32,894 bases of DNA, taken from NCBI GenBank assembly GCA_945928335.1, contig CAMENK010000001.1, positions 1-32,894 of the forward strand, in the 5' to 3' direction. Of this stretch, positions 3,074-22,416 are shown piece by piece. Below the pieces are notes generated by a model. The model was not told the DNA's origin and searched no databases. It was given only the letters and a program-made list of their open reading frames with translations. The translations under genes and the position numbers were made by a program. The stretch's first letter is position 1. The number at the start of each line of letters is the position of its first letter. The DNA is from an uncultured Bacillota bacterium. Lineage in GTDB: Bacteria; Bacillota_I; Bacilli_A; RF39; UBA660.

Positions 3074-4114
3074 ATGAATTTTAATGTAGGTGGTCATAAT
3101 GTATTTTTAATAGTATTAGTTACATTTATTAGTTCAGTTATATTTGTACAATTAAGTAAGTTAATTGCTTTACATACTGGTATTATGGATTATCCTAATA
3201 AAAGAAGTGCTCATAAGAAACCTACTCCTTTATTAGGCGGTATAGGAATATTCTTAACTTTTTTATTAGGTTATATTTTATTTGGTAAAGAGAGTACTTT
3301 GATGTTGTCTATTTTAATTGCCTCTTTTTTGATATTATTATTAGGCATTTTTGATGATATTAAACCAATACCTGCTAGATATAAAATTATAATTCATATA
3401 TTAGTTGCTGCTGTTGTTGTGTTTTATGGAGGATTAAGATTAACACATTTTGATTTATTTGGATACTATGTTAATTTTGGTAAATGGTCTTATCCTATAA
3501 CAATTATAGTTATTGTGTCTATTATAAATGCAATAAATTTAATCGATGGTTTAGATGGTTTATGTGCTGGGATTAGTTCTATATATTTTTTAACTATTGG
3601 TATTATTGCCTTAATTTTAAATAATTTGGGTGGTCTAGATATTATTTTATCTTTTATTATGTTTGGTTCTACTTTAGGATTTTTGGTTCATAATTTTCCA
3701 CCAGCAAAAATATTTATGGGTGATACGGGAAGTACATTTTTAGGACTAATGATTAGTGTTATTATGTTACTCGGATTTAAGACTGTTACTTTAACTAGTT
3801 TAATTATTCCTATGGTACTTTTAATACTTCCTATAACTGATACTTTATTTGCTATTATTAGAAGAACTATACATAAGAGACCTATTGGGGAAGCAGATAA
3901 GGAACATATTCATCATCAATTATTAAAAAAATTAAGTACTAGAAAGACTATTATTGTTATATATATTATTGAAATTATATTTAGTGTTATTACTATTTTA
4001 TATAGTATTGGTTATAGAAAAGAAATGATTATTTTCTATATATTACTTGCATTTTTAATTTTGTTTTTGGTTTTTAAAACTAATGTTATTTTTGATAATA
4101 AGGAGAAAAAATGA
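3074..4114 (+). CDS. tagO: undecaprenyl-phosphate N-acetylhexosamine-1-phosphate transferase (MraY/WecA/TagO family)
   Basis: 346-aa polytopic ORF with FDDIKP, INLIDGLDGL, HNFPPAKIFMGDTGS motifs of the polyprenyl-phosphate HexNAc-1-P transferase family. Confidence 0.9.
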   Translation: MNFNVGGHNVFLIVLVTFISSVIFVQLSKLIALHTGIMDYPNKRSAHKKPTPLLGGIGIFLTFLLGYILFGKESTLMLSILIASFLILLLGIFDDIKPIPARYKIIIHILVAAVVVFYGGLRLTHFDLFGYYVNFGKWSYPITIIVIVSIINAINLIDGLDGLCAGISSIYFLTIGIIALILNNLGGLDIILSFIMFGSTLGFLVHNFPPAKIFMGDTGSTFLGLMISVIMLLGFKTVTLTSLIIPMVLLILPITDTLFAIIRRTIHKRPIGEADKEHIHHQLLKKLSTRKTIIVIYIIEIIFSVITILYSIGYRKEMIIFYILLAFLILFLVFKTNVIFDNKEKK

Positions 4115-5079
4115 AAATATGTATTTTGGGTTGTGGTGCTTATGGTTTAGCACTTGCAAGTATTTTTAATAAGAATAAACAAAATGTTGTAATGTGGACT
4201 TTTAGTAATGATGAAGAAATTTTACTTAACGATAAGCGTGAAAGTGATAAACTTTTAGGTTATAAAATTCCTAATGAAATTAAAATAACTTCTAGTATTA
4301 AACGTGCGATTAAGAATAGTAATCTAGTTGTTATTGCTGTTCCTGCTTTTGCAGTTGATAGTGTGGCTTCTATGATTGGTAATTTAGTTACTAAAGATAT
4401 GCATATTTTACTTGCAACTAAAGGCATAGAAAATGATACATGTGATTTTTTAACTGATGTTTTAGAAAGATATATTACTAGTAATAAGATTGCTGTTATT
4501 TCTGGACCTACATTTGCTAAAGATATAGTTTTAGGAGTACCAATTGGGTTAAGTCTTGCAACTACTAATGTGAGAACTAAGAATTTTATAAAGAAAGTAA
4601 TGGAAAGTGATACTACTAAATTAAGAGATACTCAAGATGTTATTGGTGTACAAATATGTGGGGCAATTAAAAATGTTATGGCTATTGCTTCAGGTATGCT
4701 TGAAGGTATGGATGTTACTGATTCAACTAAAGCTTTGTTTTTAACTGAAAGTTTAAATGATATAAAAGAACTTATTGATGCTTTAGGTGGCAATAAAAAA
4801 ACTATTTTATCATTTAGTGGTTTTGGTGATATTCTTATGACTTGTACTAGTTCTAATAGTAGAAATTTTACTTATGGAAAGTTGATTGGAGAAGATAGAT
4901 TGGAAGAAGCTACTAACTATTCTAAAAATACTACAGTTGAAGGCTTATATACTTTAAGATCTATAAAGGAACTTATTAAACGTGAGCGTGTTAAGATGCC
5001 TATTGTTGATTTGATAAGTGATATTATAATTGGTAAAAAGAGTAAAGAAGATATGTTAAAGTTTTTAATAGAAAAATAA
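4111..5079 (+). CDS. gpsA: NAD(P)H-dependent glycerol-3-phosphate dehydrogenase
   Basis: N-terminal ILGCGAYGLALA Rossmann motif and GAIKNVMAIASG segment. AAGGAG SD upstream. The ATG overlaps the tagO TGA (ATGA at 4111-4114). Confidence 0.9.
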   Translation: MKICILGCGAYGLALASIFNKNKQNVVMWTFSNDEEILLNDKRESDKLLGYKIPNEIKITSSIKRAIKNSNLVVIAVPAFAVDSVASMIGNLVTKDMHILLATKGIENDTCDFLTDVLERYITSNKIAVISGPTFAKDIVLGVPIGLSLATTNVRTKNFIKKVMESDTTKLRDTQDVIGVQICGAIKNVMAIASGMLEGMDVTDSTKALFLTESLNDIKELIDALGGNKKTILSFSGFGDILMTCTSSNSRNFTYGKLIGEDRLEEATNYSKNTTVEGLYTLRSIKELIKRERVKMPIVDLISDIIIGKKSKEDMLKFLIEK

Positions 5080-6157: not shown

Positions 6158-6191
6158 ATTTTATCGAAAAAAGAAAGAAGTGAAAATTTTT

Positions 6192-6815
6192 ATGAAGAAG
6201 TTAAAACCTATTGGAATATATAGAAAGTGTGATTGGGTCACTATGACTGGTACTGCATCAGCTATTTTTGGAATAATTTTAGCATCTGAAGGGAAAACTA
6301 TGTATGCAGTATTTTGCTTAATATTTTCTGCAATTTGTGATGCTTTTGATGGTGTTGTTGCTAGAAGATTTAAGAGTTTAAAAGATTATGAAGTTTATGG
6401 AGTAGAATTAGATTCTTTAAGTGATGCGATTGCATTTGGAGTACTTCCTATGATGATTGTTAGAAATTTAAGTGTTCATAATATTTATACATTACTTGTT
6501 AGCATCTTTTTCTGCTTAACTGGGGTTATTAGACTTGCATATTTTAATATGCTTTCAACTACTAGAAGAAGTGATGGAAAGCAATTTATAGGACTTCCTA
6601 TTACTTGTAGCGCTATTATAATACCTTTGGTATACTTTATTACATTTATAATAGGTAAAGAATATAGAGAGATTATATTTCCAATTACATTATTGGTAAC
6701 AGGAATTTTATATATAAGTCCTTTTAGGTTAAAAAAATTATCTACTAGAGAAAAAGTTGTATTATCAATTATGGGATTACTTGTAATAGCTATTACTTTA
6801 ATAAAAATATGGTAA
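6192..6815 (+). CDS. pssA: CDP-alcohol phosphatidyltransferase, phosphatidylserine-synthase-like
   Basis: Carries the CDP-alcohol phosphatidyltransferase signature D-x2-DG-x2-AR-...-G-x3-D-x3-D (CDAFDGVVARRF...GVELDSLSD) in a small polytopic protein. ATG 6192 is preferred over GTG 6180 on SD spacing. Confidence 0.65.
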   Translation: MKKLKPIGIYRKCDWVTMTGTASAIFGIILASEGKTMYAVFCLIFSAICDAFDGVVARRFKSLKDYEVYGVELDSLSDAIAFGVLPMMIVRNLSVHNIYTLLVSIFFCLTGVIRLAYFNMLSTTRRSDGKQFIGLPITCSAIIIPLVYFITFIIGKEYREIIFPITLLVTGILYISPFRLKKLSTREKVVLSIMGLLVIAITLIKIW

Positions 6816-6854: not shown

Positions 6855-9800
6855 ATGAAAAAGTTGTTTACAAAAGAAAATTTAGTTAATTTATCTTTAA
6901 TATTATATATATTATCTATTTTATTGGATTTACATATTTTTTATAATCCTGTTTCTACTATAATAAGAGTATTTTTTATTTCTATAATATTTTTGATTAT
7001 TAATTTTAAGTTTGGTAATAAAAAAGATAGGAGAATTTTACTTAGTTATTTTGTTTTATTATTTATATATATAATTTTACATTTATTTAGCACTAGTGAG
7101 TTTAATATAGGATTTAATATTACTTATAATATATATGAAGAATTATTGTATTTTCTTAAGATGAGTATGCATATATTGATTATTTATTCTATATATAAAT
7201 TATCTATTTCTAAAGAGAAATTTTATAAAGCTATAGAAATTTCTACATTATTAATAGTTTTAAATATTATTATTTGTAATATTTTTAAAATAGGTTATAC
7301 ATCATATGATTTTAATAGTATTTCTTATAATATATTTGATTGGTTTACTAAAGATATTAACTTTTTAGAGGCATCTTCTAAAGGATATTTTCATTTAACT
7401 AATCAAATATCTGCAATACTTATTTTAGATATGTCTATTATGTTAATAAGTATGAAAGAAAAACAAAAGATTATAAATACTACTACTTTATTTTTAACTA
7501 TTATTGCTTTGTTTATGTTAGGAACTAGGATATCTACTTATTCAGTATTTATTATATTAGGTGTTTCTTTGATAGTATATATTTTAACTGGTATTAGGGA
7601 TAGAAGTATTAAGAAAAGTTTTGTTTTAACACATATTATATTATTGTTGATTTCCTTAGTTTTATATTTTAAATGTCCTCTTATTAGTAGAAATGAATTT
7701 TATTCTAATAAATATAAGGAAAGTGAAAAAAAGACGGAAGATATTGATTTAGAAGATAATATTGAATTAACTGATGAGGAGTTTAAAGATATATTAAAAG
7801 ATTATAATATAGATCCTAAATTTTATAATGAATATTATCCTTTGGAACAAGATAGAGAATTTTATGAAGAATATATTAAATATGATTTATCTAAAGTTAG
7901 TAATGTTAGATTTTTAGAAAAATCTATTATAGAAAGGATTAAATCATTAAATAATAATAAGTATGATAATTTATTTGGTATAGGTTATAATAGAATGATG
8001 AATGTATTTAATATTGAGAGAGATTTTGTTGCTCAGTATTATTCTATTGGTATACTAGGGTGTATTATTATACTTGGTGTTTATATATTATTGTTATTAT
8101 ATTCTTATTTTAAATCTTTATTTAACTTAGAAAAGCATTTTAATTATGTAAATTGTATGTTCTTATTTATACTTAGTTATTTTTTAATTGCTGCTTATTG
8201 TACTGGAAATGTTTTGAATTCCATTAGTTGTATTATTCCATATTCATTTATTTTAGGTTATTATTTATCTATATTAAATAAGAAAGAAAAAACTGAATAT
8301 GAATATATTTTAGGATTTAAGACTTCTACAAAAAATGAGAAAGAGATTTTAAAAGAAACATTTAAATCTGATGAACAAGTTATTTTATATAATATAAATC
8401 CGCTTATTATTATGAATTTTTATAAAAATAAGAAAGCTGTTAAAGAGTTTAATAAACAAGATTTAAATATTCCAGATGGTAATGGTATTATTTTAACTTC
8501 AAAATTAACTAGTGGATGTTTAGCTAATACTATACCTGGGGTTGAATTATTTGAAAGTATATGTAAGGAATCAGTAAAACATAAATATAAAATATATTTA
8601 TATGGAGCTAAACAAAATTCTGTTTATAATACTAAAGTTGGATTAGAGTCAAAATATAAGGGTATTAAAATAGTTGGATATAAGAATGGTTATACTAAAG
8701 AAAAAGAAGTTTTAGAAGATATATTAAAGAAGAAACCTGATATTTTATTTGTTGCTTTAGGTAGTCCTAAACAAGAAAACTTTATTATTAAGAATAAAAG
8801 TAAATTAAAGAAAATCAAAATAATTATGCCAGTTGGTGGAACTTTTGATGTTATAAGTAAGAATACTAAACGCGCACCTTTAATTGTTAGAGATTTAAAA
8901 TTAGAATGGCTTTATAGAATGATTAAAGAGCCTAAGTTATTTAAGAATTTAGGAAAATTTATAAAATATTTCTTTACTGTTTTATTTTTTAATAATCATT
9001 ATAATAAAAAAGTTATTTCTAAAGAAAAAAAGGTTGTTAAGGAAAAAAGTTATAAACTAAGAAAAGTATTGGGTTATTTATGTGTAGCATTACCTTTGTT
9101 AATTTTATTATCAGTTTTATGGGCTAATAAAACTTTTGGTAATCCTGATATTGATGAGATATTATTTACAATGACTAATTCATTAAATGGTACTGATATG
9201 AAGATTATTTTAAGTTATTGTTTATATGCTTTATTACCTGTTATATTATTTACTATTATATATTTTATTCTTTTGAAGATTACTAAAAGAAATGAAAAGT
9301 TCAATAAGATATATTTAATTATAATTCTATTTGGTATAATTATGTGTGGTTTTACCTCATTATATGTAGAAAGAAGATTTTCTATAAAAGAATATGTTTC
9401 TGTAAATAAAACTTCAACTGAGTTTGTAGAAAAAAATTATGTTGCAACTGATTTAGATAATATTAGTTTTCCAGAAGATAAGAATAATTTAATAGTTATA
9501 TATTTAGAATCAATGGAAATGACATTTAGTTCTAAAGAAAATGGAGGATCTTACGATTTTAATTATATTCCTAATCTGACTAAGCTTGCTCAGGAGAATA
9601 TAAACTTTTCTAACTCTGAATTACTTGGTGGTGCTAATTCTATATCTAGTTTATCTTGGACAACAGCTGGATTAGTTGCTACTACATCTGGATTGCCTAT
9701 AAAAACTTCATTTAGAAATGCTAATGATCAAATTTTCGTATTTCCTAATATTAATGCTTTAGGTAATGTTATGCAGGAAAATGGATATAATATGGAATTT

Positions 9801-10478
9801 ATGTTAGGTTCAGATGCATCTTTTGGTGGAATGGAAAATTATTTATTAGCGCATGGTAATTATAAAATATTTGATTTAAAATATGCAAAGGAAAATAATT
9901 TATTAAAAGATATAAAATTGACTTCATGGGGTATTTCTGATAGAGATTTATTTGAATTATCTAAAAAGGAACTAGTAAATTTATCAAATCAAGATAAACC
10001 TTTCTATTTTTCTTTAATGACGATTGATACTCATGCTCCTGAAGGAACATCATATAAAGATTGTAAAAGTGTTTCTGAAGATAAATATTTTAATTCTATT
10101 TATTGTGCTGATATTACTATAAATAGTTTTATAAATTGGCTAAAGGAACAGGATTTTTATGAGAATACAACTATAGTTTTAACAGGAGACCATTTATCTA
10201 TGAGCAGTTTAGTTGAAGTGGATAATCGCTCTATTTATAATGTTATTATAAATTCAAAAGTTGAACCAGAGAATGATAAAAATAGATTATTTACTAATTT
10301 AGATATGTATCCAACCATATTAGCAAGTTTAGGAGTAGAAATAGAAGAAAATCAATTAGGATTAGGTGTTAACTTATTTTCAAATAAAAAAACTTTAGCT
10401 GAAAAATATACATTTGTAGAATTTGTAACTCAAATGAGTTATTATTCAAGGTTTTATAATGATGAACTTCTTAATTAG
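6855..10478 (+). CDS. three-domain fusion: WaaL/Wzy (O-antigen-ligase-like) polytopic domain + WecG/TagA/CpsF GT26 domain + LtaS/OpgB-type phosphoglycerol-transferase (sulfatase-fold) domain
   Basis: Uninterrupted 1207-codon ORF with GAGGAG SD. aa ~1-480 are many TM helices plus the LFGIGYN... segment shared with the ORF at 11445. aa ~485-700 carry PDGNGI, LYGAKQ, FVALGSPKQENFI, MPVGGTFDV, LEWLYRMIKEPK (GT26). After about 3 more helices come LIVIYLESME, SWTTAGLVATTSG, MTIDTHAP, LTGDHLS (alkaline-phosphatase superfamily, LtaS/MdoB-like). Confidence 0.75.
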   Translation: MKKLFTKENLVNLSLILYILSILLDLHIFYNPVSTIIRVFFISIIFLIINFKFGNKKDRRILLSYFVLLFIYIILHLFSTSEFNIGFNITYNIYEELLYFLKMSMHILIIYSIYKLSISKEKFYKAIEISTLLIVLNIIICNIFKIGYTSYDFNSISYNIFDWFTKDINFLEASSKGYFHLTNQISAILILDMSIMLISMKEKQKIINTTTLFLTIIALFMLGTRISTYSVFIILGVSLIVYILTGIRDRSIKKSFVLTHIILLLISLVLYFKCPLISRNEFYSNKYKESEKKTEDIDLEDNIELTDEEFKDILKDYNIDPKFYNEYYPLEQDREFYEEYIKYDLSKVSNVRFLEKSIIERIKSLNNNKYDNLFGIGYNRMMNVFNIERDFVAQYYSIGILGCIIILGVYILLLLYSYFKSLFNLEKHFNYVNCMFLFILSYFLIAAYCTGNVLNSISCIIPYSFILGYYLSILNKKEKTEYEYILGFKTSTKNEKEILKETFKSDEQVILYNINPLIIMNFYKNKKAVKEFNKQDLNIPDGNGIILTSKLTSGCLANTIPGVELFESICKESVKHKYKIYLYGAKQNSVYNTKVGLESKYKGIKIVGYKNGYTKEKEVLEDILKKKPDILFVALGSPKQENFIIKNKSKLKKIKIIMPVGGTFDVISKNTKRAPLIVRDLKLEWLYRMIKEPKLFKNLGKFIKYFFTVLFFNNHYNKKVISKEKKVVKEKSYKLRKVLGYLCVALPLLILLSVLWANKTFGNPDIDEILFTMTNSLNGTDMKIILSYCLYALLPVILFTIIYFILLKITKRNEKFNKIYLIIILFGIIMCGFTSLYVERRFSIKEYVSVNKTSTEFVEKNYVATDLDNISFPEDKNNLIVIYLESMEMTFSSKENGGSYDFNYIPNLTKLAQENINFSNSELLGGANSISSLSWTTAGLVATTSGLPIKTSFRNANDQIFVFPNINALGNVMQENGYNMEFMLGSDASFGGMENYLLAHGNYKIFDLKYAKENNLLKDIKLTSWGISDRDLFELSKKELVNLSNQDKPFYFSLMTIDTHAPEGTSYKDCKSVSEDKYFNSIYCADITINSFINWLKEQDFYENTTIVLTGDHLSMSSLVEVDNRSIYNVIINSKVEPENDKNRLFTNLDMYPTILASLGVEIEENQLGLGVNLFSNKKTLAEKYTFVEFVTQMSYYSRFYNDELLN

Positions 10479-10857
10479 AAAAAGTAATAATAGATTTATT
10501 AAATATTGTATATTTGGAAGCTTAATAAGTATTTTAGAAATTATTTTATATTATGTACTTGCTAAGTATCTACATATTTATCCACTGCTTTCTAATGCAA
10601 TTGCCTTTTTAGTTTCGGTGTCATTGTCTTTTTATGCTAATAGTAAATATGTTTTTAAGACTATGTTTATTAGTAAGAAAAATAAAATTAGAAGCTTTTG
10701 TCTATTTTTAAGCAGTAGAGTAATAGGATTATTTGTGGATTCTTCTATTTTATACTTATTGCTTTATATAAATTGTTCAAATTTAATCGCTAAAACAATT
10801 TCTTGTATTTCTACAACAATTATAAATTATTTTATGGGAAAATATATATTTAAATGA
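10459..10857 (+). CDS. GtrA-family membrane protein
   Basis: 132 aa with 4 predicted helices. N-terminal FIKYCIFGSL... and C-terminal INYFMGKYIFK are typical of GtrA-like proteins. It overlaps the preceding ORF by 20 nt. Confidence 0.7.
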   Translation: MMNFLIRKSNNRFIKYCIFGSLISILEIILYYVLAKYLHIYPLLSNAIAFLVSVSLSFYANSKYVFKTMFISKKNKIRSFCLFLSSRVIGLFVDSSILYLLLYINCSNLIAKTISCISTTIINYFMGKYIFK

Positions 10858-10927: not shown

Positions 10928-11461
10928 ATGAAAAGTTATGTAAAAAAACAATTATTAAGATTAAGAGTTTATATTATATTTGATGCTGTTAAAAGAACTA
11001 AATACATTAAAAAGAAGAATATATTTTATAAAGTTGGAGAAAATTTCTTTTTTCAACCTAGAAAATTACCTAGTGATCCTGAAATGATTAGTTTTGGAAA
11101 TAATGTTGTTGTGGCTAGTGATGTAACTTTTATCAATCATGATATTATTAATACTATGTTAAATGGATTATCAAGAAATAAATATTATTCATATTATTTA
11201 AGACCTATAAGTATTGGAGATAATGTTTTTATAGGCTCTAATACTATTATTCTTCCTGATGTAAAAATTGGCAATAATGTGATCATCGGAGCTGGTAGTG
11301 TTGTAACTAAAGATGTAAGTAATAATACTGTTGTTTGTGGAAATCCAGCAAAAGAAGTTTGTACTTTTAATGAATTTCTTGATAAAAGATCACAGATTTA
11401 TACTAATGACATTATAGAGATAGATAAGTTATGGAGAATGTTTTATGATGAAAAAAATTGA
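10928..11461 (+). CDS. left-handed beta-helix (hexapeptide-repeat) O-acetyltransferase
   Basis: Repeated [LIV]-G-x4 hexapeptides (ISIGDNVFIGSNTIILPDVKIGNNVIIGAGSVVTKDV) and a C-terminal GNPAKEV, as in maltose/galactoside-type acetyltransferases. Confidence 0.8.
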   Translation: MKSYVKKQLLRLRVYIIFDAVKRTKYIKKKNIFYKVGENFFFQPRKLPSDPEMISFGNNVVVASDVTFINHDIINTMLNGLSRNKYYSYYLRPISIGDNVFIGSNTIILPDVKIGNNVIIGAGSVVTKDVSNNTVVCGNPAKEVCTFNEFLDKRSQIYTNDIIEIDKLWRMFYDEKN

Positions 11462-12692
11462 AGATAGTAAAAATAAAGTAGTTTTAATATTTTTATATTT
11501 ACAGCCTTTTTTAGATATATTAGCTGCATTTCTTATGTATAATGGAATAAGTAATTATATTACATCATTTATAAGAATTATGTTTATGTTTTTTATGATT
11601 GTTTATTTGTTTTTTGCTAAATATGATAATAAGAGAAAAGTTATTTTATATTTGATTTTATTAATAACTTATTTATTAATTCACATTTTACTTATGATAA
11701 TTTATAAGGATGTTAGTGTCTTATTTTATGAATTAAGAAATACTATTTCTACATTTTATTTTGTTTTTTTACTTATAACTTTTGGAGTTATATATTCGGA
11801 TAAGTGTATAAGTAAAATTCATTTAAGAAATTTGTGGCTTATTTATTTGTCGTTTATATTTATACCAAATATATTAGGAATTGGATTTAATAGTTATTCT
11901 CATAGTAAAACTGGGATGTCTGGATTCTTTTACTCTGCTAATGTTGTTGGTTCAATTTTGGTCATACTATTACCAACTATTTTTAATACTTTAAAAAAAT
12001 TTCCAATTTGGGTTAAATGTATTTTAATTATAGTAACTTTATATAGTTTATTTAGTTTGGGTACTAAAACACCAGTGCTTGCTTTGTTAATTATTATTAT
12101 TTTTAATGTATTGTATTTTGCTTATAAATTATTTAAGAATAAGAATAAAAAAGGAATAATCATTATAATAAGTAGTTTTATATTAGTAGCATTGACAGGT
12201 ATAATTGTGATTCCAAAAACTAGTTTTTATAAAAACTTAGAGATTCATTATGAGTTTTTAGAGAAAAATAATATTAAAGTGGGAAGTAAAAAATTTTTTG
12301 ATCATTTTATTTTTAGCCAGAGGTTATCTATGGAAGAACGTAGCAGATTAAATTATAACAATAGTCCTTTAATTGAAAAATTATTTGGTATTGGTTATAT
12401 TGAAAACTATGGTACTGATGATGTAAATTTGAAGATGGTTGAAATGGATTATTTTGATATTTTTTATAGAGAAGGAATTATAGGTTTTATTTTATTTTTT
12501 ATACCGGTAGTTATTGTGATTACTAAGTTTTTAAAAAATTATAAAAATAATTTTGATAATCTTAATATATTTATATCTATTCTTTTAATATTCTTATTAG
12601 CTCTATTTCAAGGACATATATTTATAACGCCGGCTATAAGCATTTTTGTAGCTTTGATATTTATTATTAGTATTAGGCAGATTAAATGTTAA
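11445..12692 (+). CDS. O-antigen-ligase/polymerase-like (Wzy_C family) polytopic membrane protein
   Basis: 415 aa with at least 10 hydrophobic helices, a large hydrophilic loop, then LFGIGYIENYG...REGIIGFILFF. It is paralogous to the N-terminal domain of the 1207-aa fusion. Confidence 0.7.
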   Translation: MMKKIEDSKNKVVLIFLYLQPFLDILAAFLMYNGISNYITSFIRIMFMFFMIVYLFFAKYDNKRKVILYLILLITYLLIHILLMIIYKDVSVLFYELRNTISTFYFVFLLITFGVIYSDKCISKIHLRNLWLIYLSFIFIPNILGIGFNSYSHSKTGMSGFFYSANVVGSILVILLPTIFNTLKKFPIWVKCILIIVTLYSLFSLGTKTPVLALLIIIIFNVLYFAYKLFKNKNKKGIIIIISSFILVALTGIIVIPKTSFYKNLEIHYEFLEKNNIKVGSKKFFDHFIFSQRLSMEERSRLNYNNSPLIEKLFGIGYIENYGTDDVNLKMVEMDYFDIFYREGIIGFILFFIPVVIVITKFLKNYKNNFDNLNIFISILLIFLLALFQGHIFITPAISIFVALIFIISIRQIKC

Positions 12693-12808: not shown

Positions 12809-13609
12809 ATGATTAAAGCAATAATAAATAATTTTAAAAAATATTCTTTTCTCATGAGTCAAATGATTATGAGGGATTTCAAAGTAAAATATAAAAGAAG
12901 TGTTTTAGGAGTGGTTTGGAGTTTACTATATCCTGTTTTAATGATGGCTGTTATGGCGTTGGTTTTTTCAAATATGTTTAAATTTAAAGTTGAAGGCGTA
13001 AACTATTTGGTTTATTTGATGATAGGATTAGTTATTTTTAACTATTTTAATGAAGCTTCTACTACTGCAATGAGTTCTGTTATAACAAATTTTTCACTTA
13101 TCAATAAGGTATATATTCCAAAATATATTTTCCCTTTATCTAAATGTTTATTTGTTGGAATAAATTTTCTATTAACTTTAATACCATTATTAATAATAAT
13201 AGTTTTTACAGGAACGCCTGAAACAAGATGTATTATTAACATTTATTATTTGTTAATTCCAATTGCGTTTGTTTGTATGTTTTTGTTTACTGTTGGTATT
13301 GGTTTTATTTTATCTACAATTGCTGTATTTTTTAGAGATATTTTATATATTTATGGAATTATTATGACTATATGGACTTATTTTACACCTATTTTTTATG
13401 ATTTGAGTATTTTGCCTGTTAAATTGCAAGCTTTATTTAAATTGAATCCATTATATCAATTTATAAACTTTGTAAGAACTATAGTATTATATAATCAATT
13501 ACCTTCATTTGGGAATTTCTTAGGATGTATATTTTATGGTGTCTTTGCATTTTTAATAGGTTGTATTGTATTTAAGAAAAATCAAGATAAATTTATTTAC
13601 TATATATAG
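12809..13609 (+). CDS. tagG: ABC-2 type polysaccharide/teichoic-acid export permease
   Basis: 266 aa with 6 predicted helices. N-terminal MRDFKVKYKRSVLGVVWSLLYP is characteristic of TagG/Wzm/KpsM permeases. Confidence 0.85.
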   Translation: MIKAIINNFKKYSFLMSQMIMRDFKVKYKRSVLGVVWSLLYPVLMMAVMALVFSNMFKFKVEGVNYLVYLMIGLVIFNYFNEASTTAMSSVITNFSLINKVYIPKYIFPLSKCLFVGINFLLTLIPLLIIIVFTGTPETRCIINIYYLLIPIAFVCMFLFTVGIGFILSTIAVFFRDILYIYGIIMTIWTYFTPIFYDLSILPVKLQALFKLNPLYQFINFVRTIVLYNQLPSFGNFLGCIFYGVFAFLIGCIVFKKNQDKFIYYI

Positions 13610-13619
13610 GAGGTGTTTT

Positions 13620-14351
13620 ATGATAAGTGTTAAAAATGTTACTATGAAGTTTAATCTTGGTATAGAAAAGAATAATTCTTTTAAAGAAACATTTATAAAT
13701 ATGTTTAAGAAAAAACAGAAAGTAAATAATGATTTTATTGCTCTTAAAAATGTAAGTTTTGAAGTTAATAAGGGTGAAGTTATTGGCATTGTTGGTAGTA
13801 ATGGAGCTGGAAAGAGTACCTTATTAAAGATAGTTAGTGGTGTAATGAAGCCAACTAAAGGAGAGGTTGAAGTTAATGGTGTAATATCTCCGATGATTGA
13901 ACTTGGTGCTGGATTTGACATGGAACTTACTGCTAGAGAAAACATATTTTTAAATGGTGCAGTTCTAGGATATTCTAAACAATTTTTGGAAGAAAAATTT
14001 AATGATATTGTTGAATTTTCTGAATTAAAGGAATTTTTGGATGTTCCTATTAAAAATTTTTCATCAGGTATGATTGCAAAACTTGCATTTTCTATAGCTA
14101 CTATTGTAAATCCTGAAATACTAATAGTTGATGAAATTTTGTCGGTTGGAGATATTAAATTTCAAGAAAAAAGTAAAAATAAGATGATGGAAATGATTAG
14201 GGGTGGAACTACAGTGTTATTTGTTTCACATTCTTTAGATCAAATAAGGGCTTTGTGTAATAGAGTTATTTGGTTAGAACATGGTGAAGTTCAAATGATT
14301 GGTGATGTTAATATTGTTTGTGATGAATATTATAATAAACAAATGAAGTGA
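13620..14351 (+). CDS. tagH: polysaccharide/teichoic-acid export ABC ATP-binding protein (no C-terminal carbohydrate-binding extension)
   Basis: Walker A GSNGAGKST, signature FSSGM, Walker B ILIVDE, H-loop. The start is set at ATG 13620 behind TAGGAGG rather than 13566, which would overlap tagG. Confidence 0.85.
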   Translation: MISVKNVTMKFNLGIEKNNSFKETFINMFKKKQKVNNDFIALKNVSFEVNKGEVIGIVGSNGAGKSTLLKIVSGVMKPTKGEVEVNGVISPMIELGAGFDMELTARENIFLNGAVLGYSKQFLEEKFNDIVEFSELKEFLDVPIKNFSSGMIAKLAFSIATIVNPEILIVDEILSVGDIKFQEKSKNKMMEMIRGGTTVLFVSHSLDQIRALCNRVIWLEHGEVQMIGDVNIVCDEYYNKQMK

Positions 14352-14362
14352 GGAGATAAAAA

Positions 14363-15370
14363 ATGAGTATATTTAAAGACAAGGTATTATTAATAACTGG
14401 AGGAACTGGTTCTTTTGGGAATGCAGTATTAAAAAGATTTCTAGATACGGATATCAAAGAAATAAGAATATTTTCTAGAGATGAAAAAAAGCAAGAAGAT
14501 ATGAGAATTAAGTATAAGAATGACAAAATTAAATTTTATATTGGAGATGTTAGAAACTATAGAAGTGTTGAGGATGCAATGGATGGAGTAGATTATATTT
14601 TTCATGCAGCTGCATTAAAACAAGTTCCGTCATGTGAGTTTTTTCCAATAGAGGCGGTTGAAACAAATATTTTGGGAACAAATAATGTTCTTGAGGCAGC
14701 AATAAATCATAATGTAAAAAAAGTAATAGTATTAAGCACTGATAAGGCAGCCTATCCTATAAATGCAATGGGTATGAGTAAAGCCCTTATGGAAAAAGTT
14801 GCAATTGCAAAAGGTAGAAATTTAAGAGACAATCAAACAGTAATATGTAGGACTAGATATGGTAATGTAATGGCTTCTAGAGGTAGTGTTATTCCTTTAT
14901 TTTGTGATCAAATAAATGAAGGATTATCTTTAACTATAACAAATCCTGATATGACTAGATTTATGATGACTTTAGAAGATGCTGTTGATTTAGTAATTTA
15001 TGCTTTTGAACATGGAGAGCAAGGTGATTTGTTTGTTCAAAAAGCACCTGCTGCCACAATTGGAACGTTAGCACAAGCTGTAAAAGAATTAAAGAAAAGC
15101 GACTCTAAAATAAATATTATAGGTACTCGTCATGGTGAAAAATTATATGAAGTATTAGTTACTAAAGAAGAAATGGTTAATGCAGTTGATTTGGGAGATT
15201 ATTATAAAATTCCTGCTGATAATAGAAATCTAAATTATCAAAAATATGAAAATGTAGGAAATAAAAAGCTTGATGATATAGAAGAATATAATTCTCATAA
15301 TACTAGAAGATTGGATGTAGAGGAAATGAAAAAATTGTTGCTTAAATTAGATTTGTTTAAAGAGGAGTAA
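14363..15370 (+). CDS. UDP-GlcNAc 4,6-dehydratase/5-epimerase, CapE/FnlA/WbvB type
   Basis: LITGGTGSFGNA Rossmann motif and the AMGMSKALMEK segment, i.e. the MxxxK variant of the SDR YxxxK triad that distinguishes CapE/FnlA-type enzymes. Confidence 0.8.
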   Translation: MSIFKDKVLLITGGTGSFGNAVLKRFLDTDIKEIRIFSRDEKKQEDMRIKYKNDKIKFYIGDVRNYRSVEDAMDGVDYIFHAAALKQVPSCEFFPIEAVETNILGTNNVLEAAINHNVKKVIVLSTDKAAYPINAMGMSKALMEKVAIAKGRNLRDNQTVICRTRYGNVMASRGSVIPLFCDQINEGLSLTITNPDMTRFMMTLEDAVDLVIYAFEHGEQGDLFVQKAPAATIGTLAQAVKELKKSDSKINIIGTRHGEKLYEVLVTKEEMVNAVDLGDYYKIPADNRNLNYQKYENVGNKKLDDIEEYNSHNTRRLDVEEMKKLLLKLDLFKEE

Positions 15371-15371
15371 T

Positions 15372-16214
15372 ATGAAAAAAATTTTAGTAATCGGAAAAAC
15401 AGGAATGTTAGGACATGTTGTATTTAAGTATTTTGAAAGTAAAGATTATATTGTTGCTGGTACAAGTAGAAAAGAAAAAGATAATTTTTATTTCGATGTT
15501 TTAGATAATTATAAAGCAATTGAAAACATAATTTCTGAATTTCAACCTAATGTTATAATAAATTGTATAGGTGTATTAAATAAAGACGCAGAAGCAAATC
15601 CTGCCAAGGCAATTTTAATAAATAGTTTTTTTCCACATTATTTAGATAATTTGTCAAAAACATATAATTATAAATTGGTTCATATAAGTACTGATTGTGT
15701 ATTTAGTGGAAAGCAAGGAAATTATAATGAAAATAGTGTAAAAGATGCTTATTCTATTTATGGTCAGAGTAAAGCATTAGGAGAAGTTGTTAATGATAGA
15801 AATGTAACTCTTAGAACTTCAATTATAGGGCCAGATATGAACTCGAATGGAATTGGTTTATTTCATTGGTTTATGAATCAGACTGGTGAAATTAAGGGTT
15901 ATGATAAAGTTATTTGGACTGGCGTTACAACTCTAGAATTAGCTAAACAAATTGAGGTTGCAATAAATAATGATTTAGTTGGTTTATATCATGTAGTTAA
16001 TTCTGAAAAAATTGATAAATATAGTCTTTTAAGTCTTATTAAAGATGTGTTTAATAAAGATATAAATATTATTCCTGATTCTTCTGTTATTTCAGACAAA
16101 AGTTTAATTATAACTAGAAATGATTTTAAATTTAATGTTCCAAGTTATGAGGTTATGATTAAAGAAATGAAAGAATGGATTTTGGAAAATAAAGATTTAT
16201 ATATGTATGATTAG
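15372..16214 (+). CDS. RmlD-like SDR 4-reductase (WbvR-like; UDP-2-acetamido-2,6-dideoxy-L-hexos-4-ulose reductase candidate)
   Basis: 280 aa with VIGKTGMLG and HISTDCVFSG...YGQSKALGE, as in dTDP-4-dehydrorhamnose reductases. It is much shorter than CapF/FnlB-type reductases. Confidence 0.65.
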   Translation: MKKILVIGKTGMLGHVVFKYFESKDYIVAGTSRKEKDNFYFDVLDNYKAIENIISEFQPNVIINCIGVLNKDAEANPAKAILINSFFPHYLDNLSKTYNYKLVHISTDCVFSGKQGNYNENSVKDAYSIYGQSKALGEVVNDRNVTLRTSIIGPDMNSNGIGLFHWFMNQTGEIKGYDKVIWTGVTTLELAKQIEVAINNDLVGLYHVVNSEKIDKYSLLSLIKDVFNKDINIIPDSSVISDKSLIITRNDFKFNVPSYEVMIKEMKEWILENKDLYMYD

Positions 16215-16226
16215 GAGAAATAAGTT

Positions 16227-17336
16227 ATGAGAGTAATGACAATAGTTGGTACAAGACCAGAAATAATAAAGTTATCTTGTGTTATAAAAGAATTAGATAA
16301 ATATACTGATCATATTTTAGTTCATACTGGGCAGAATTATGATTATGAGTTAAATCAAGTGTTTTTTGAAGATTTGGGATTGCGTGAGCCGGATGTTTAT
16401 ATGAATGCAGCTGGTAATACTCCTGCCGAAACAATTGGGAATGTAATTAAAATTTCTGATGATTTATTTAAAAAGTATAAACCTGATGCAGTTTTGCTTT
16501 ATGGTGATACTAATTCATGTTTAGCAGTTATTTCGGCTAAAAGAAACAAAATACCTGTTTTTCATATGGAAGCTGGAAATAGATGTTTTGATGAAAGAGT
16601 TCCTGAAGAAATAAATAGAAAAATACTAGACCATTTAAGTGATATAAATATGACATTAACTGAACATGCTAGAAGGTATTTAATAGCTGAAGGTATTAAG
16701 CCAGAAACTATTATTAAAACAGGTTCTAGTATGAAAGAAGTTTTTGAAATGAATAAAGAAAAAATTGAAAATAGTGATGTTCTTAATAGATTGGGATTAG
16801 AAAAAAATGAATACTTTGTTTTAAGTACTCACAGAGAAGAAAATGTTGATAATCTAGACAACTTTAATAAATTATTAGAATCAATAAATAAAGTTGCTGA
16901 AGTGTATAAAATGCCGATAGTATTTAGTGTTCATCCTAGAACAAGAAAAAAAATAGAAGAAATTGGTTTTGAATTTAATCCTTTAGTTAAATATATGAAA
17001 CCTTTAGGTTTTAATGATTATAATAAACTTCAAATGAATGCATTTTGTGTTATTAGTGATAGTGGGACTATTACTGAAGAATCTTCTTTATTAGGTTTTC
17101 CAGCAATAACTGTTCGTCAAGCTCATGAAAGACCTGAGGGAATGGATGAAGGGACTTTAATTATGAGTGGAGTGGATTCAGATACTATCATAGATTCTAT
17201 TAAGGTTGTTACTGATCAAAATGTAAAAATGAATGTTGTTAAAGATTATGATGTAGATCATTTAGCAAGTAAAGTGGTAAGAATAATAATGAGTTATACT
17301 GGCTATATTAATAGAACAGTTTGGAAAAAGTATTAA
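16227..17336 (+). CDS. non-hydrolysing UDP-N-acetylhexosamine 2-epimerase (FnlC/WbvD/CapG-like)
   Basis: MTIVGTRPEIIKL N-terminus, YGDTNS, HMEAGNRCFD, HREEN, and DSGTITEES motifs of the WecB/MnaA epimerase fold. Confidence 0.85.
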   Translation: MRVMTIVGTRPEIIKLSCVIKELDKYTDHILVHTGQNYDYELNQVFFEDLGLREPDVYMNAAGNTPAETIGNVIKISDDLFKKYKPDAVLLYGDTNSCLAVISAKRNKIPVFHMEAGNRCFDERVPEEINRKILDHLSDINMTLTEHARRYLIAEGIKPETIIKTGSSMKEVFEMNKEKIENSDVLNRLGLEKNEYFVLSTHREENVDNLDNFNKLLESINKVAEVYKMPIVFSVHPRTRKKIEEIGFEFNPLVKYMKPLGFNDYNKLQMNAFCVISDSGTITEESSLLGFPAITVRQAHERPEGMDEGTLIMSGVDSDTIIDSIKVVTDQNVKMNVVKDYDVDHLASKVVRIIMSYTGYINRTVWKKY

Positions 17337-20338: not shown

Positions 20339-21940
20339 ATGAAAAAGATTACAATTTTATCTTTACATTTAGGTGTTGGTGGTATAGAAAAATATATAAC
20401 TAGTTTGAGTAAAATGCTTAGTTCTGATTATGAAGTAGAAATGATTATAACTTATAAACTTAAGGAAGTACCTTCATTTAATATAGGAAAAAATATAAAA
20501 ATAACATATTTAATTGATGGTGGGCCTAATAGGGATGAAATAAGAAAATGTGTAAAAAGGCATAAATATTTAAAATTATTAAAGGAAATTATAAAAGCTA
20601 TTAAAATTTTATATTTAAAAAGGGCAAGAACTAAAAAGGCAATTAAAAATTTGGAAACTGACTATTTAATTACTACTAGAACATATGAAACTAAATTAGC
20701 AAATAAAATTCTTAAAAATAATAAAGTTAAGTTAATTGCTACTGATCATAATTACCCTGATAAAAAATATAAAACTAAATTAATAAAGGCTACTACTAAT
20801 TTTGATAGATTAGTTTTAGTAAATAGTGAAATAAGAGATATTTATAAACAAGAAATTGGATTAAAAGCTATATGTATAAATAATTTTATTGATGACTTAT
20901 CTAAAGAGAAGAGTAATTTAGGTACTAAAAATATTATATCGGTTGGTAGATTTTCTAAGGAGAAGGGCTTTATTGATTTAATTGATATAATGTCTTTGAT
21001 AATAAAAAAAGATAATAAAGTTACTTTGACTTTAGTAGGAGATGGAGAAGAAAAAGAAAATATTCAAAATAGAATAAAGGAATTGAAACTTGAAAATAAC
21101 ATAAAGTTAACTGGATATCTAAATCAAGAAGAAATAAAAAGTGAGTTATTAAAATCTAGTCTTTTTTGTATGACTAGTGAAGTAGAAAGTTTTGGCTTAG
21201 TAATATTGGAAGCAATGAATCTAGGAGTACCTGTAGTTGCTTTTGAATCTGCATGTGGTCCAAGAGTACTTCTTAGAAATGGAGCGGGTATTTTAATAAA
21301 AGAACGTAATAAAGAAGATTTTGCTAATTGTGTATTAGATTTACTTAATAATAAAAGTAAATTGAAGAAATTATCTGATTTGTCTAAAAAGGAGATTGAA
21401 AATTATACTTCAGATGTAATAAAACAAGAGTGGTTAAAATTATTAAATGATGTAAATAAATTATCACGCAAAAAAGTAATGTTTATATCTAGTACTGGAG
21501 GACATTTAAATGAACTTTTAATGTTAAAGAGCATGTTTAACAAGTATAACTATTTTTTAATTACTGAAAATACTGCTTCTAATAAAAATTTAAAAAATAA
21601 GTATGGTAAAAAGAAAGTTGGATTTTTAGTGTACGGGACTAGAAAACATATTTTTTCTTATATTTTTAAAATTATTTTTAATAGTTTTAAAAGTTTATAT
21701 TATTTTATAAAAATTAGACCTAGTTTTATTGTTTCAACTGGTGCTCATACTGCTGGACCGATGTGCTTAATTGGACATCTTTTAGGGGCTAAAATAATTT
21801 TTATTGAAACATTTGCAAATAGTGAAACTAAAACTATTACTGGAAGTTTAGTTTATAAATTTGCTGATTTGTTTATAGTTCAGTGGGAAAGTATGCTAGA
21901 AAATTATCCTAATGCTGTGTTTGGAGGTTGGATATATTGA
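20339..21940 (+). CDS. fusion of a GT4 glycosyltransferase (paralogue of 19084-20217) with a C-terminal Alg14-like half-glycosyltransferase domain
   Basis: aa 1-~370 align by eye with the previous GT4 (MKKITILSLHLGVGGIEKYI vs MQKITILALHLDFGGIEKYI; VGRFSKEKGF; ESFGLVILEAM). aa ~375-533 (VMFISSTGGHLNELL...STGAHTAGP...IFIETFAN) resemble Alg14/Cps14F/EpsE-type proteins. Confidence 0.7.
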   Translation: MKKITILSLHLGVGGIEKYITSLSKMLSSDYEVEMIITYKLKEVPSFNIGKNIKITYLIDGGPNRDEIRKCVKRHKYLKLLKEIIKAIKILYLKRARTKKAIKNLETDYLITTRTYETKLANKILKNNKVKLIATDHNYPDKKYKTKLIKATTNFDRLVLVNSEIRDIYKQEIGLKAICINNFIDDLSKEKSNLGTKNIISVGRFSKEKGFIDLIDIMSLIIKKDNKVTLTLVGDGEEKENIQNRIKELKLENNIKLTGYLNQEEIKSELLKSSLFCMTSEVESFGLVILEAMNLGVPVVAFESACGPRVLLRNGAGILIKERNKEDFANCVLDLLNNKSKLKKLSDLSKKEIENYTSDVIKQEWLKLLNDVNKLSRKKVMFISSTGGHLNELLMLKSMFNKYNYFLITENTASNKNLKNKYGKKKVGFLVYGTRKHIFSYIFKIIFNSFKSLYYFIKIRPSFIVSTGAHTAGPMCLIGHLLGAKIIFIETFANSETKTITGSLVYKFADLFIVQWESMLENYPNAVFGGWIY

Positions 21941-22416
21941 TATTTGTGACGGTTGGTACTCAAGATGTACCTTTTGATAGATTATTAAAAGAAGTTGATA
22001 AATGTATAATTGATGGGACAATAAAGGAAGAAGTTATAGTTCAGTCAGGTAATACTAAATTTAAATCTAAAAATATGAAGATGGTTAATTTATTACCTAT
22101 GGAGGATTTTAAAAAGATTATTAGTGAGGCTAGTATTATAATTGCGCATGGTGGGGTTGGTACTATTACTGATGGAATATCTAACGATAAAGTAGTTATT
22201 GCATGTCCTCGACTTGCTAAATATAAAGAGGCTGTAAACGATCACCAAATTCAAATTATTAAGCAATTTGATAAAATGGGTTTTATAATTCCTTTATATA
22301 ATCCTAAAGAATTGAAAATAGCTTTAGAAAGGGCAAAGGAATTCAAAATAAAAAAATATAGGAGTAATACTTCTAATATGATTAAACTAATAGAAAAATT
22401 TATTGATAACAATTAA
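21937..22416 (+). CDS. Alg13-like glycosyltransferase C-terminal half-domain (Cps14G/EpsF/PssE-like)
   Basis: (M)IFVTVGTQDVPFDRLL N-terminus and AHGGVGTI are typical of GT28-C/Alg13-like proteins. The start is placed at TTG 21937, which has GGAGG 9 nt upstream and forms a TTGA overlap with the preceding stop. The table start 21928 would abut the SD. Confidence 0.7.
   Translation: MIFVTVGTQDVPFDRLLKEVDKCIIDGTIKEEVIVQSGNTKFKSKNMKMVNLLPMEDFKKIISEASIIIAHGGVGTITDGISNDKVVIACPRLAKYKEAVNDHQIQIIKQFDKMGFIIPLYNPKELKIALERAKEFKIKKYRSNTSNMIKLIEKFIDNN

Follow-up and report, generated by a model that had tools for sequence, protein, structure and literature searches.

The 32,894-nucleotide contig CAMENK010000001.1 (GenBank assembly GCA_945928335.1), the whole of which was analyzed and is here termed the window, derives from an uncultured Bacillota bacterium and carries an uninterrupted open reading frame (ORF) that joins an O-antigen-ligase-like membrane domain, a TagA-like glycosyltransferase domain of family GT26, and a membrane-anchored module of the sulfatase fold. 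The explanation that best accounts for the evidence as a whole, to which we give a probability of about 0.72, is that this gene arose by recent in-frame fusion of adjacent genes for a secondary cell-wall (teichoic-acid-like) polymer in an uncultured species of gut Bacilli with a low guanine-plus-cytosine (GC) content, and that the fusion is both genuine and selected. Coordinates of the fused gene, its parts, and its neighbors are collected in Table 1.

The original prediction, made from the letters of the DNA, placed three domains on the single 1207-residue ORF, and this assignment holds: all three regions score above their Pfam cut-offs, namely PF13425 (O-antigen_lig; aa 29-472, 128.3 bits, cut-off 31), PF03808 (Glyco_tran_WecG; aa 536-696, 163.7 bits, cut-off 27.4), and PF00884 (Sulfatase; aa 878-1159, 81 bits, cut-off 25), and every motif that had been quoted for them is present. 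The description of the first domain as Wzy/WaaL-like stands insofar as PF13425 is matched at 128 bits, but the Wzy_C family itself (PF04932) stays below its gathering score in the fused protein (18.4 vs 31.7 bits). Similarly, the proposed kinship with the protein encoded at 11445-12692 is borne out by shared membership in PF13425 and by the LFGIGY motif, while overall similarity to the ligase-like domain is weak (E=3e-5, with 22% of 98 aligned residues identical).

The frame is strongly conserved. The GC content of the window is only 18-31%, and random frames are consequently rich in stop codons; the 1207 codons on the forward strand nevertheless run without interruption from an ATG seven bases past a GAGGAG ribosome-binding site. 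The 90%-identity cluster of the fused protein holds eight distinct sequences, each of exactly 1207 aa, 91-100% identical and aligned with zero gaps, which were drawn from eight contigs differing in sample, source, and assembler; residues 713-741, which span the junction, are near-invariant among them. The junction DNA was also compared across five assemblies. Over 301 bp it is identical in the window and in L001 (loci used for comparison carry L numbers), an independent assembly that differs elsewhere, and over aa 713-745 there are zero codon differences from L060 and L061 and one synonymous difference only from L062, even as the flanks differ. Together, the gap-free variants and the five-assembly comparison rule against a missed stop or frameshift, a possibility that the original prediction had raised. 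Ratios of nonsynonymous to synonymous substitution rates (dN/dS; Nei-Gojobori method, window vs four other alleles) are ~0.2 overall, with values of 0.20-0.32 for the ligase-like part, 0.08-0.36 for GT26, and 0.16-0.21 for the sulfatase ectodomain; taken by module, the range is 0.13-0.32 for the ligase-like and GT26 parts and 0.16-0.23 for the sulfatase part. As far as comparison of alleles can show it, the fused gene genuinely codes for protein, and purifying selection acts on each of its parts. In the allele at L062:10001-13624, the synonymous rate (dS) against window positions 9390-10475 reaches 0.45 in the ectodomain and is 0.06-0.16 in the remainder of the gene, a pattern implying that the ectodomain was swapped, apparently by intragenic recombination, with the fusion retained; both the fusion and the constraint are kept in this divergent allele.

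How the fusion arose is indicated by the distribution of its parts. Searches with the whole protein recovered two-domain PF13425+PF03808 proteins (695-753 aa) in upwards of 55 clusters, 39-66% identical over the first ~60% of the query, and one cluster only, at the ≥90% level, in which all three domains are joined. The two-domain proteins, which come from metagenome-assembled genomes (MAGs) of gut Bacilli and of Clostridia, correspond as orthologs to aa 1-722 and are found at the equivalent place in the locus, but are without the sulfatase module, which in those loci is a separate gene; 1080-aa proteins of PF13425+GT1+PF03808 architecture are likewise orthologous over aa 1-722 and likewise without it. 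The best match in a scan of genome contigs, a set that lacked the window's own species, was in a rabbit-gut Bacilli MAG, with 58% identity over aa 1-716. Conversely, stand-alone proteins of 476-478 aa align from end to end with the C-terminal 478 aa (55% identity, 99% coverage), and the stand-alone sulfatase genes of relatives occupy the same kind of locus, directly upstream of and overlapping a GtrA gene, as in the window. In the nearest two-domain relative, L002, whose locus genes are 63-83% identical to those of the window, the order is TagO-GpsA-x-Sulfatase-CDP-OH-[LIG-GT26]-GtrA-ABC2-ABC, as compared with TagO-GpsA-GT2-CDP-OH-[LIG-GT26-SULF]-GtrA-...-ABC2-ABC in the window (LIG, ligase-like domain; SULF, sulfatase-fold module; CDP-OH, CDP-alcohol phosphatidyltransferase); relatives are thus syntenic with the window but keep the genes separate. 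In a more distant metagenome lineage (L065:1033-8247), GT26, a sulfatase homolog, a PF13425 protein, and TagO are encoded by separate neighboring genes, and this neighborhood lends independent support to a functional association of the four.

The junction itself retains traces of two genes. The two-domain proteins stop at the window's ...NKKVIS(722), and Y733 is where the stand-alone sulfatases begin; the intervening ten residues, encoded by AAAGAAAAAAAGGTTGTTAAGGAAAAAAGT, look like a former intergenic spacer that is now translated. Within this stretch an AAGGA resembling a Shine-Dalgarno (SD) element lies at 9039-9043, and a TAT at 9051-9053 occupies the position of the ATG of the stand-alone homologs (AAGGA-N8-TAT). 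The fused junction reads TTATAAAC, and the unfused form with one extra base would read TTATGAAAC: insertion of a single G after 9053 yields AAGGA-N8-ATG followed by a 475-aa ORF starting MKLRKVLGYL. In this one-base reconstruction the upstream ORF ends 77 nt into the sulfatase ORF, at 757 aa. Probably, an overlapping gene pair became one when the downstream ATG lost its G, perhaps after earlier changes at the upstream stop. On these comparisons, the triple form is a young in-frame fusion of a common two-domain gene with a complete neighboring gene, restricted to one species-level cluster. Given this history of a young fusion, probably by one-base loss of a start codon, in a single species-level cluster, the "assembly line" envisaged in the original prediction is not a designed one.

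The triple form was sought widely. Exhaustive searching of 1.84 billion representative proteins with phmmer found no second protein spanning the three regions, scans of genomes and metagenomes found no other triple fusion (the protein-level metagenome scan yielded stand-alone sulfatase relatives only), and Joint Genome Institute (JGI) metagenome contigs had zero matches to the junction in either form, the one with the extra base or the one lacking it. Two proteins with matches in two stretches (P0206 and P0210) were considered as further fusions and proved to be tandem sulfatase duplications. In these searches the triple form was unmatched among characterized and among other uncharacterized proteins, in line with the original prediction, which recognized the architecture in no characterized protein, but the novelty applies to the joining of the parts: the ligase-GT26 two-thirds are common (~725 aa, >55 clusters) and the last third is a complete neighbor gene. 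In short, the architecture is undescribed, yet lineage-restricted and less exotic than first proposed.

Structure models place the catalytic domains on both faces of the membrane. The two halves (aa 1-735 and aa 730-1207) were modeled separately with AlphaFold2, using family alignments; a full-length model was dropped, as MAFFT misplaced half-length homologs in the 1200-column alignment and aligned the sulfatases at 13-17% identity. The N-terminal model (predicted local distance difference test score, pLDDT, 88; predicted template-modeling score, pTM, 0.84) contains twelve transmembrane (TM) helices, a 116-residue, mostly helical loop joining TM9 and TM10, a Rossmann-type domain (482-691), and a long terminal helix (693-734); an amphipathic helix is assigned to aa 692-712 (hydrophobic moment 0.5-0.56). 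The C-terminal model (pLDDT 92.8, pTM 0.92) has an alpha/beta domain after its TM part. With the N-terminus inside, the density of lysine and arginine is 0.32 in predicted cytoplasmic segments vs 0.08 in external ones (p=4e-5). The predicted order shown by these models is of twelve TM helices with both ends inside, a cytoplasmic GT26 domain, an amphipathic helix, a basic linker, three TM helices, and an external LtaS/OpgB-like domain. About three helices, and an odd number, had been expected between GT26 and the sulfatase domain; AlphaFold2 and hydropathy both give three, and these helices, running from inside to outside, together with the charge bias, therefore put the catalytic domain outside. 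The earlier proposal of active sites on both membrane faces is thus in agreement with the modeled topology and with the lysine/arginine distribution.

The GT26 domain passes the NCBIfam GT26 superfamily model (TIGR00696, 139 bits, cut-off 69); by Foldseek it superposes on TagA structures 5wb4, 7n41, and 7mpk (TM-score 0.89, root-mean-square deviation 1.9 A, 36-39% identity) and aligns with residues 23-238 of the 244 residues of full-length Thermoanaerobacter italicus TagA (7mpk), C-terminal appendage included. D541 (nt 8475-8477), the PDG-motif aspartate, aligns with D65, the catalytic residue of that enzyme, and is invariant in 55 homologs. The likeness to TagA/TarA accordingly comprises the fold, the catalytic aspartate, the appendage serving membrane association, and a locus with a TagO-type initiating enzyme. 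The differences are that GT26 here lies between two polytopic membrane modules, whereas TagA is a peripheral protein of ~245 aa; that T37 of T. italicus TagA is aligned to Asn; and that the domain falls far under the TarA equivalog cut-off, its sugar specificity being putative. A stand-alone GT26 protein of 243 aa also exists.

The C-terminal module belongs with the phospholipid-headgroup transferases of the alkaline-phosphatase fold. Its best NCBIfam model is OpgB phosphoglycerol transferase I (185.7 bits over aa 747-1180), and Foldseek ranks 3lxq, LtaP, LtaS, MCR-1, and GacH ahead of true sulfatases. E885, H1060, and D1112/H1113 correspond to LtaS E255, H416 (which binds phosphate), and D475/H476, and are invariant in 91 homologs, in at least 90% of which W935-T936 is also conserved; T936 is the probable nucleophile equivalent to LtaS T300, although the alignment here is not clean. 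Going by these correspondences and by D541, the catalytic residues of both the GT26 and the phosphotransferase domains are shown to be intact. A true sulfatase of the formylglycine type was considered and rejected: the C/S-x-P-x-R motif is absent, the site reading SLSWTTAG, and the fold matches favor transferases.

Among the closest known systems are OpgB (MdoB) of Escherichia coli and 3lxq, an uncharacterized Vibrio protein. OpgB supplies the top-scoring curated model, has a similar layout of about three (3-4) N-terminal TM helices followed by an external alkaline-phosphatase-fold domain, and would share the proposed decoration of a glycan with a phospholipid headgroup and release of diacylglycerol. 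It moves phosphoglycerol from phosphatidylglycerol to glucans, yielding diacylglycerol, which Dgk removes (PMC3818809). It differs in its substrates, which are periplasmic glucans rather than a Gram-positive wall polymer, in a C-terminal ~250 aa that is absent here (the match covers model positions 31-461 of 703), and in that 186 bits compare with an equivalog cut-off of 572. The streptococcal glycerol-phosphate transferases GacH/SccH, as well as LtaS/LtaP, share the catalytic fold and, at the Mn/Thr active site, the residues E, T, and D-H together with the His that binds phosphate, at only 18-21% identity; here there are 3 TM helices, vs 11 in GacH and 5 in LtaS. GacH is additionally alike in acting externally on an ABC-exported wall polysaccharide, to which it adds sn-glycerol-1-phosphate (bioRxiv 10.1101/337519).

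From these assignments a pathway can be proposed. TagO would make undecaprenyl diphosphate (Und-PP)-linked N-acetylglucosamine, and the GT26 domain, anchored by TM segments on both sides, would add a second sugar of the N-acetylmannosamine (ManNAc) type at the cytoplasmic face. Glycosyltransferases of the locus would complete the glycan and the ABC-2 transporter would export it. Outside, the PF13425 domain might polymerize the Und-PP-linked glycan or pass it to an acceptor, in the manner of WpaA/WpaB, WaaL, or TacL, and the C-terminal domain, through Thr936 and a metal site of E885, D1112, and H1113, would move a phospho-headgroup from a membrane phospholipid to the polymer. This headgroup would most likely be sn-glycerol-1-phosphate from phosphatidylglycerol, as for OpgB/GacH, with diacylglycerol freed. 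The fusion would most likely add stoichiometric and spatial coupling instead of new chemistry, and it would pin the C-terminal helix of the TagA part to the membrane. One chain would in this proposal combine the making of a linkage or repeat unit inside with polymerization or ligation, and phospho-headgroup decoration, on the outside.

Several observations weigh against this reading. Every equivalog-level model fails, namely OpgB (NF009027, 185.7 vs 572 bits), LtaS (NF053595, 46.6 vs 970 bits), and TarA (NF041710, 130.4 bits vs cut-off 350), and because of this the exact substrates of the fused domains are putative; the WecG equivalog is also far under its cut-off. A profile of the ligase-like domain found no WaaL sequence match in the PDB, only insignificant ones to streptococcal AgI/II, and the WaaL catalytic residues could not be mapped. 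The 757 aa of the reconstructed upstream ORF exceed most two-domain relatives (695-753 aa), and more than one mutational step may have been needed. The window's only 2-epimerase, an Epimerase_2 gene, passes the wecB cut-off, yet it is ~30% identical to the epimerases of relatives and follows FnlA/B-like genes; it may be of the FnlC type (UDP-L-N-acetylfucosamine) and not MnaA, and UDP-ManNAc supply is putative. The coupling between the fused domains is putative, being drawn from fusion and synteny. Lastly, LtaS H347 and R356, which bind glycerol, are replaced by L984 and M993, as they are in comparison with GacH; the adjacent CDP-alcohol phosphatidyltransferase is closest to PssA (PDB 7pow/7b1k, E~1e-13; NCBIfam pssA, 88 bits) with its motif intact and without a PgsA match; and across 98 loci a CDP-alcohol phosphatidyltransferase gene lies within 6 kb of 8/31 homologs lacking the Arg at the R356 position vs 0/67 of those having it (p=5e-5, not phylogeny-corrected). 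In view of these scores, the replaced glycerol-binding residues, and the PssA-like neighbor, the specific TagA and LtaS/OpgB activities named in the original prediction are putative.

The identity of the headgroup is the point on which an alternative fares best. Glycerol-phosphate is our leading guess, held at somewhat better than even odds: among curated models OpgB scores highest by a wide margin, a GpsA gene is present in the locus, and no match of the C-terminal module to EptA-, OpgE-, or BcsG-type models was found in NCBIfam. The PssA-like neighbor and the missing His/Arg pair hint, on the other side, at a non-glycerol headgroup. Under this doubtful alternative, which we hold distinctly less probable, the C-terminal domain transfers another headgroup (phosphoethanolamine or phosphoserine) within a three-component decoration module, the donor lipid being produced by the PssA-like enzyme and Psd and possibly flipped by GtrA. 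Consistent with it are the affinity of the 6180-6815 product to PssA; the Arg of LtaS, which most of the wider sulfatase-homolog family has and which is Met here; the association by Arg status, seen also for GtrA (within 6 kb of 4/31 non-Arg vs 0/67 Arg homologs, likewise not phylogeny-corrected); the overlap of sulfatase and GtrA genes in the window and in L003; and the nearby Psd (120-983) and SDF-family transporter (1715-2947) genes. The resemblance in sequence, however, is to OpgB and LtaS, both of which are glycerol-phosphate transferases, the OpgE-OpgB similarity is not significant (PMC3818809), 3lxq likewise has Met at the R356 position, and the pssA-like and psd genes may be housekeeping phospholipid genes. 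The loci showing association with CDP-alcohol phosphatidyltransferase or GtrA genes are the window, L002, L003, L006, L028, L034, L046, L057, and L077. A wider and rather improbable extension, for which we would claim less again, is that an OpgB-like sub-clade, which has lost the glycerol-binding Arg and is always accompanied by a PssA-like CDP-alcohol transferase and in many cases by GtrA, takes part in an undescribed three-component system that makes and flips a dedicated phospholipid donor and transfers a non-glycerol headgroup such as phosphoserine or phosphoethanolamine onto Gram-positive wall polysaccharide, welded here to the TagA and ligase steps. In the open-access literature, no description of a ligase-TagA fusion or of a CDP-alcohol transferase/GtrA/sulfatase triad was found.

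A second alternative, which we regard as unlikely, is that the fused ORF yields separate products, whether by -1 frameshifting or slippage, by internal initiation, or by proteolytic release of the ectodomain as for OpgB and LtaS. An in-frame dnaX-type heptamer, A_AAA_AAG, lies at 9026-9032 inside the linker, and a ribosome slipping by -1 at this site would meet a stop 3 codons on, giving 728 aa, the usual two-domain length, with the C-terminus ...KEKKGC; however, this window is A-rich and has 6 copies of the heptamer in ~10,000 codons, lysines abound in the linker, and no stimulatory downstream structure was found, the RNA being less structured than shuffled controls (z=+1.19). Programmed frameshifting was accordingly demoted to a minor rival. 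Internal initiation could draw on the retained AAGGA, but at SD spacing ATG, GTG, and TTG are all absent, an in-frame TTG being no nearer than ~27 nt, and an unfused sulfatase module would be left without a start codon. Ectodomain release has a precedent in the periplasmic domain of OpgB, which is released as phosphoglycerol transferase II (PMC3818809).

Slightly less probable again is that the PF13425 domain is a mere membrane anchor for TagA, a degenerate ligase devoid of external catalysis. TagA does require membrane association, the Wzy_C score is sub-threshold, and no residue-level match to the WaaL catalytic residues was obtained. Against this stand ~30 residues that are invariant over 55 homologs of 39-66% identity and concentrated in outward loops, among them R225, D333, R352, E355, E388, and D390 as well as the GIGY motif; a dN/dS of 0.2-0.3; and the occurrence of stand-alone homologs of 482-485 aa. 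The invariant outward arginines R225 and R352 are suggestive of a fit to WaaL-like catalysis. The family layout of twelve TM helices, termini inside, and an outward TM9-TM10 loop is present in the model and in the charge bias, and is shared with WaaL (7tpg), to which Foldseek aligns the domain at E=4e-4 (7tpg_B) with a modest TM-score of 0.31/0.50; similarity at the sequence level is absent. WaaL and TacL of Streptococcus pneumoniae are more distant comparisons than WpaA/WpaB of Bacillus anthracis, which belong to the same Pfam family and are the proposed polymerase/ligases of the TagO/TagA-initiated secondary cell wall polymer pathway (PMC6030368). By this membership a PF13425-TagA fusion is biologically coherent, and the two-domain form has evidently been successful. 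Likeness to WpaA/WpaB, WaaL, and TacL also lies in the setting, a TagO/TagA-initiated wall-polymer locus; fusion to GT26, and also to a phosphotransferase, sets the domain apart from WpaA/WpaB and WaaL. The outward loop also shows a weak match (window 7740-8015, aa 296-387) to streptococcal antigen I/II adhesins in their C-terminal domains (E=0.0017 for the sequence by itself, 0.13-0.2 for a profile), a resemblance that is probably compositional.

That errors of sequencing or assembly created the long ORF, or that it is a fused pseudogene in decay, as the A6-A7 homopolymers around the junction and the single-base indel separating the fused and unfused states might suggest, is effectively refuted by the gap-free variants, the junction DNA, the intact catalytic residues, and a constraint that extends to every part, even in L062.

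A fusion found in nature is evidence that its parts, here three enzymes of one pathway, act together. This one links the poorly understood PF13425 proteins of the WpaA/WpaB family, the TagA step, and an OpgB/GacH-like phospho-decoration within wall-polymer synthesis of abundant but uncultured gut Bacilli, and the fused gene offers a ready-made single construct for activity tests. It also provides a clean example of gene fusion by an apparent one-base deletion, and the associated PssA-like and GtrA genes suggest that a lipid donor may be supplied specifically for decorating the polysaccharide. The fusion is confined to a single species-level lineage and, on its own, shows no new chemistry.

Table 1. 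Positions in the window of the fused gene, its parts, and neighboring genes
Feature	Position	Strand	Remarks
TagO/WecA-type GT4 initiating transferase	3074..4114	+	Overlaps GpsA gene by 4 nt (4111-4114)
GpsA-type glycerol-3-phosphate dehydrogenase	4111..5079	+	
PssA-like CDP-alcohol phosphatidyltransferase	6180..6815	+	Immediately upstream of fused ORF; candidate lipid-donor maker
Whole fused ORF	6855..10478	+	1207 aa; 15 predicted TM helices
Ligase-like (LIG) domain (aa 1-480)	6855..8294	+	PF13425, O-antigen-ligase-like; 12 TM helices; large outward loop aa 274-389 (TM9-TM10)
GT26 (WecG/TagA/CpsF) domain (aa 481-712), predicted cytoplasmic	8295..8990	+	C-terminal TagA appendage ends in amphipathic helix, aa ~692-712
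Fusion linker KEKKVVKEKS + Y733	9021..9053	+	Read as former intergenic spacer; DNA same in L001
Three TM helices of sulfatase module	9045..9380	+	aa 731-761, 782-810, 815-842; short interfacial helix; from AlphaFold2, hydropathy, lysine/arginine distribution
Predicted extracytoplasmic LtaS/OpgB-type alkaline-phosphatase-fold domain (aa 843-1207)	9381..10475	+	Metal ligands E885, D1112/H1113; H1060; probable nucleophile T936
GtrA-family small membrane protein	10459..10857	+	20-nt overlap with fused ORF 3' end; same with stand-alone sulfatase genes in relatives
Second, stand-alone PF13425 ligase-like protein	11445..12692	+	415 aa; carries LFGIGY
ABC-2 permease + ATPase (TagG/TagH- or Wzm/Wzt-like polymer exporter)	12809..14351	+	

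A TagO-type enzyme, glycosyltransferases, an ABC-2 exporter, LCP ligases, and pyruvyl transferases are hallmarks of secondary cell wall polymers initiated by TagO/TagA. Besides the genes of Table 1, the locus holds several GT2/GT4 glycosyltransferases and an acetyltransferase, and LCP ligases and pyruvyl transferases are present additionally in the loci of relatives. The adjacency of TagO and GpsA is kept in L002, L031, and L057. With its TTG start as listed, the ABC ATPase gene (13566-14351) overlaps the permease gene by 44 nt, and gene callers on the orthologous contig give 243 aa; the true start is probably ~54 nt downstream. Further along, window positions 14363-17336 encode an FnlA-like protein (581 bits, cut-off 730) and an RmlD-like reductase, followed by the Epimerase_2 gene. 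Genes of phospholipid metabolism flank the wall-polymer locus, these being Psd (phosphatidylserine decarboxylase), a diacylglycerol kinase (upstream in L001 and L060, whose contigs are longer), a PAP2 phosphatase encoded on the other strand, and the SDF-family transporter. A further fusion of domains within the locus, at 20339-21940, joins a GT1 glycosyltransferase to an Alg14-like domain, and is followed by an overlapping Alg13-like (Glyco_tran_28_C) gene at 21928-22416.

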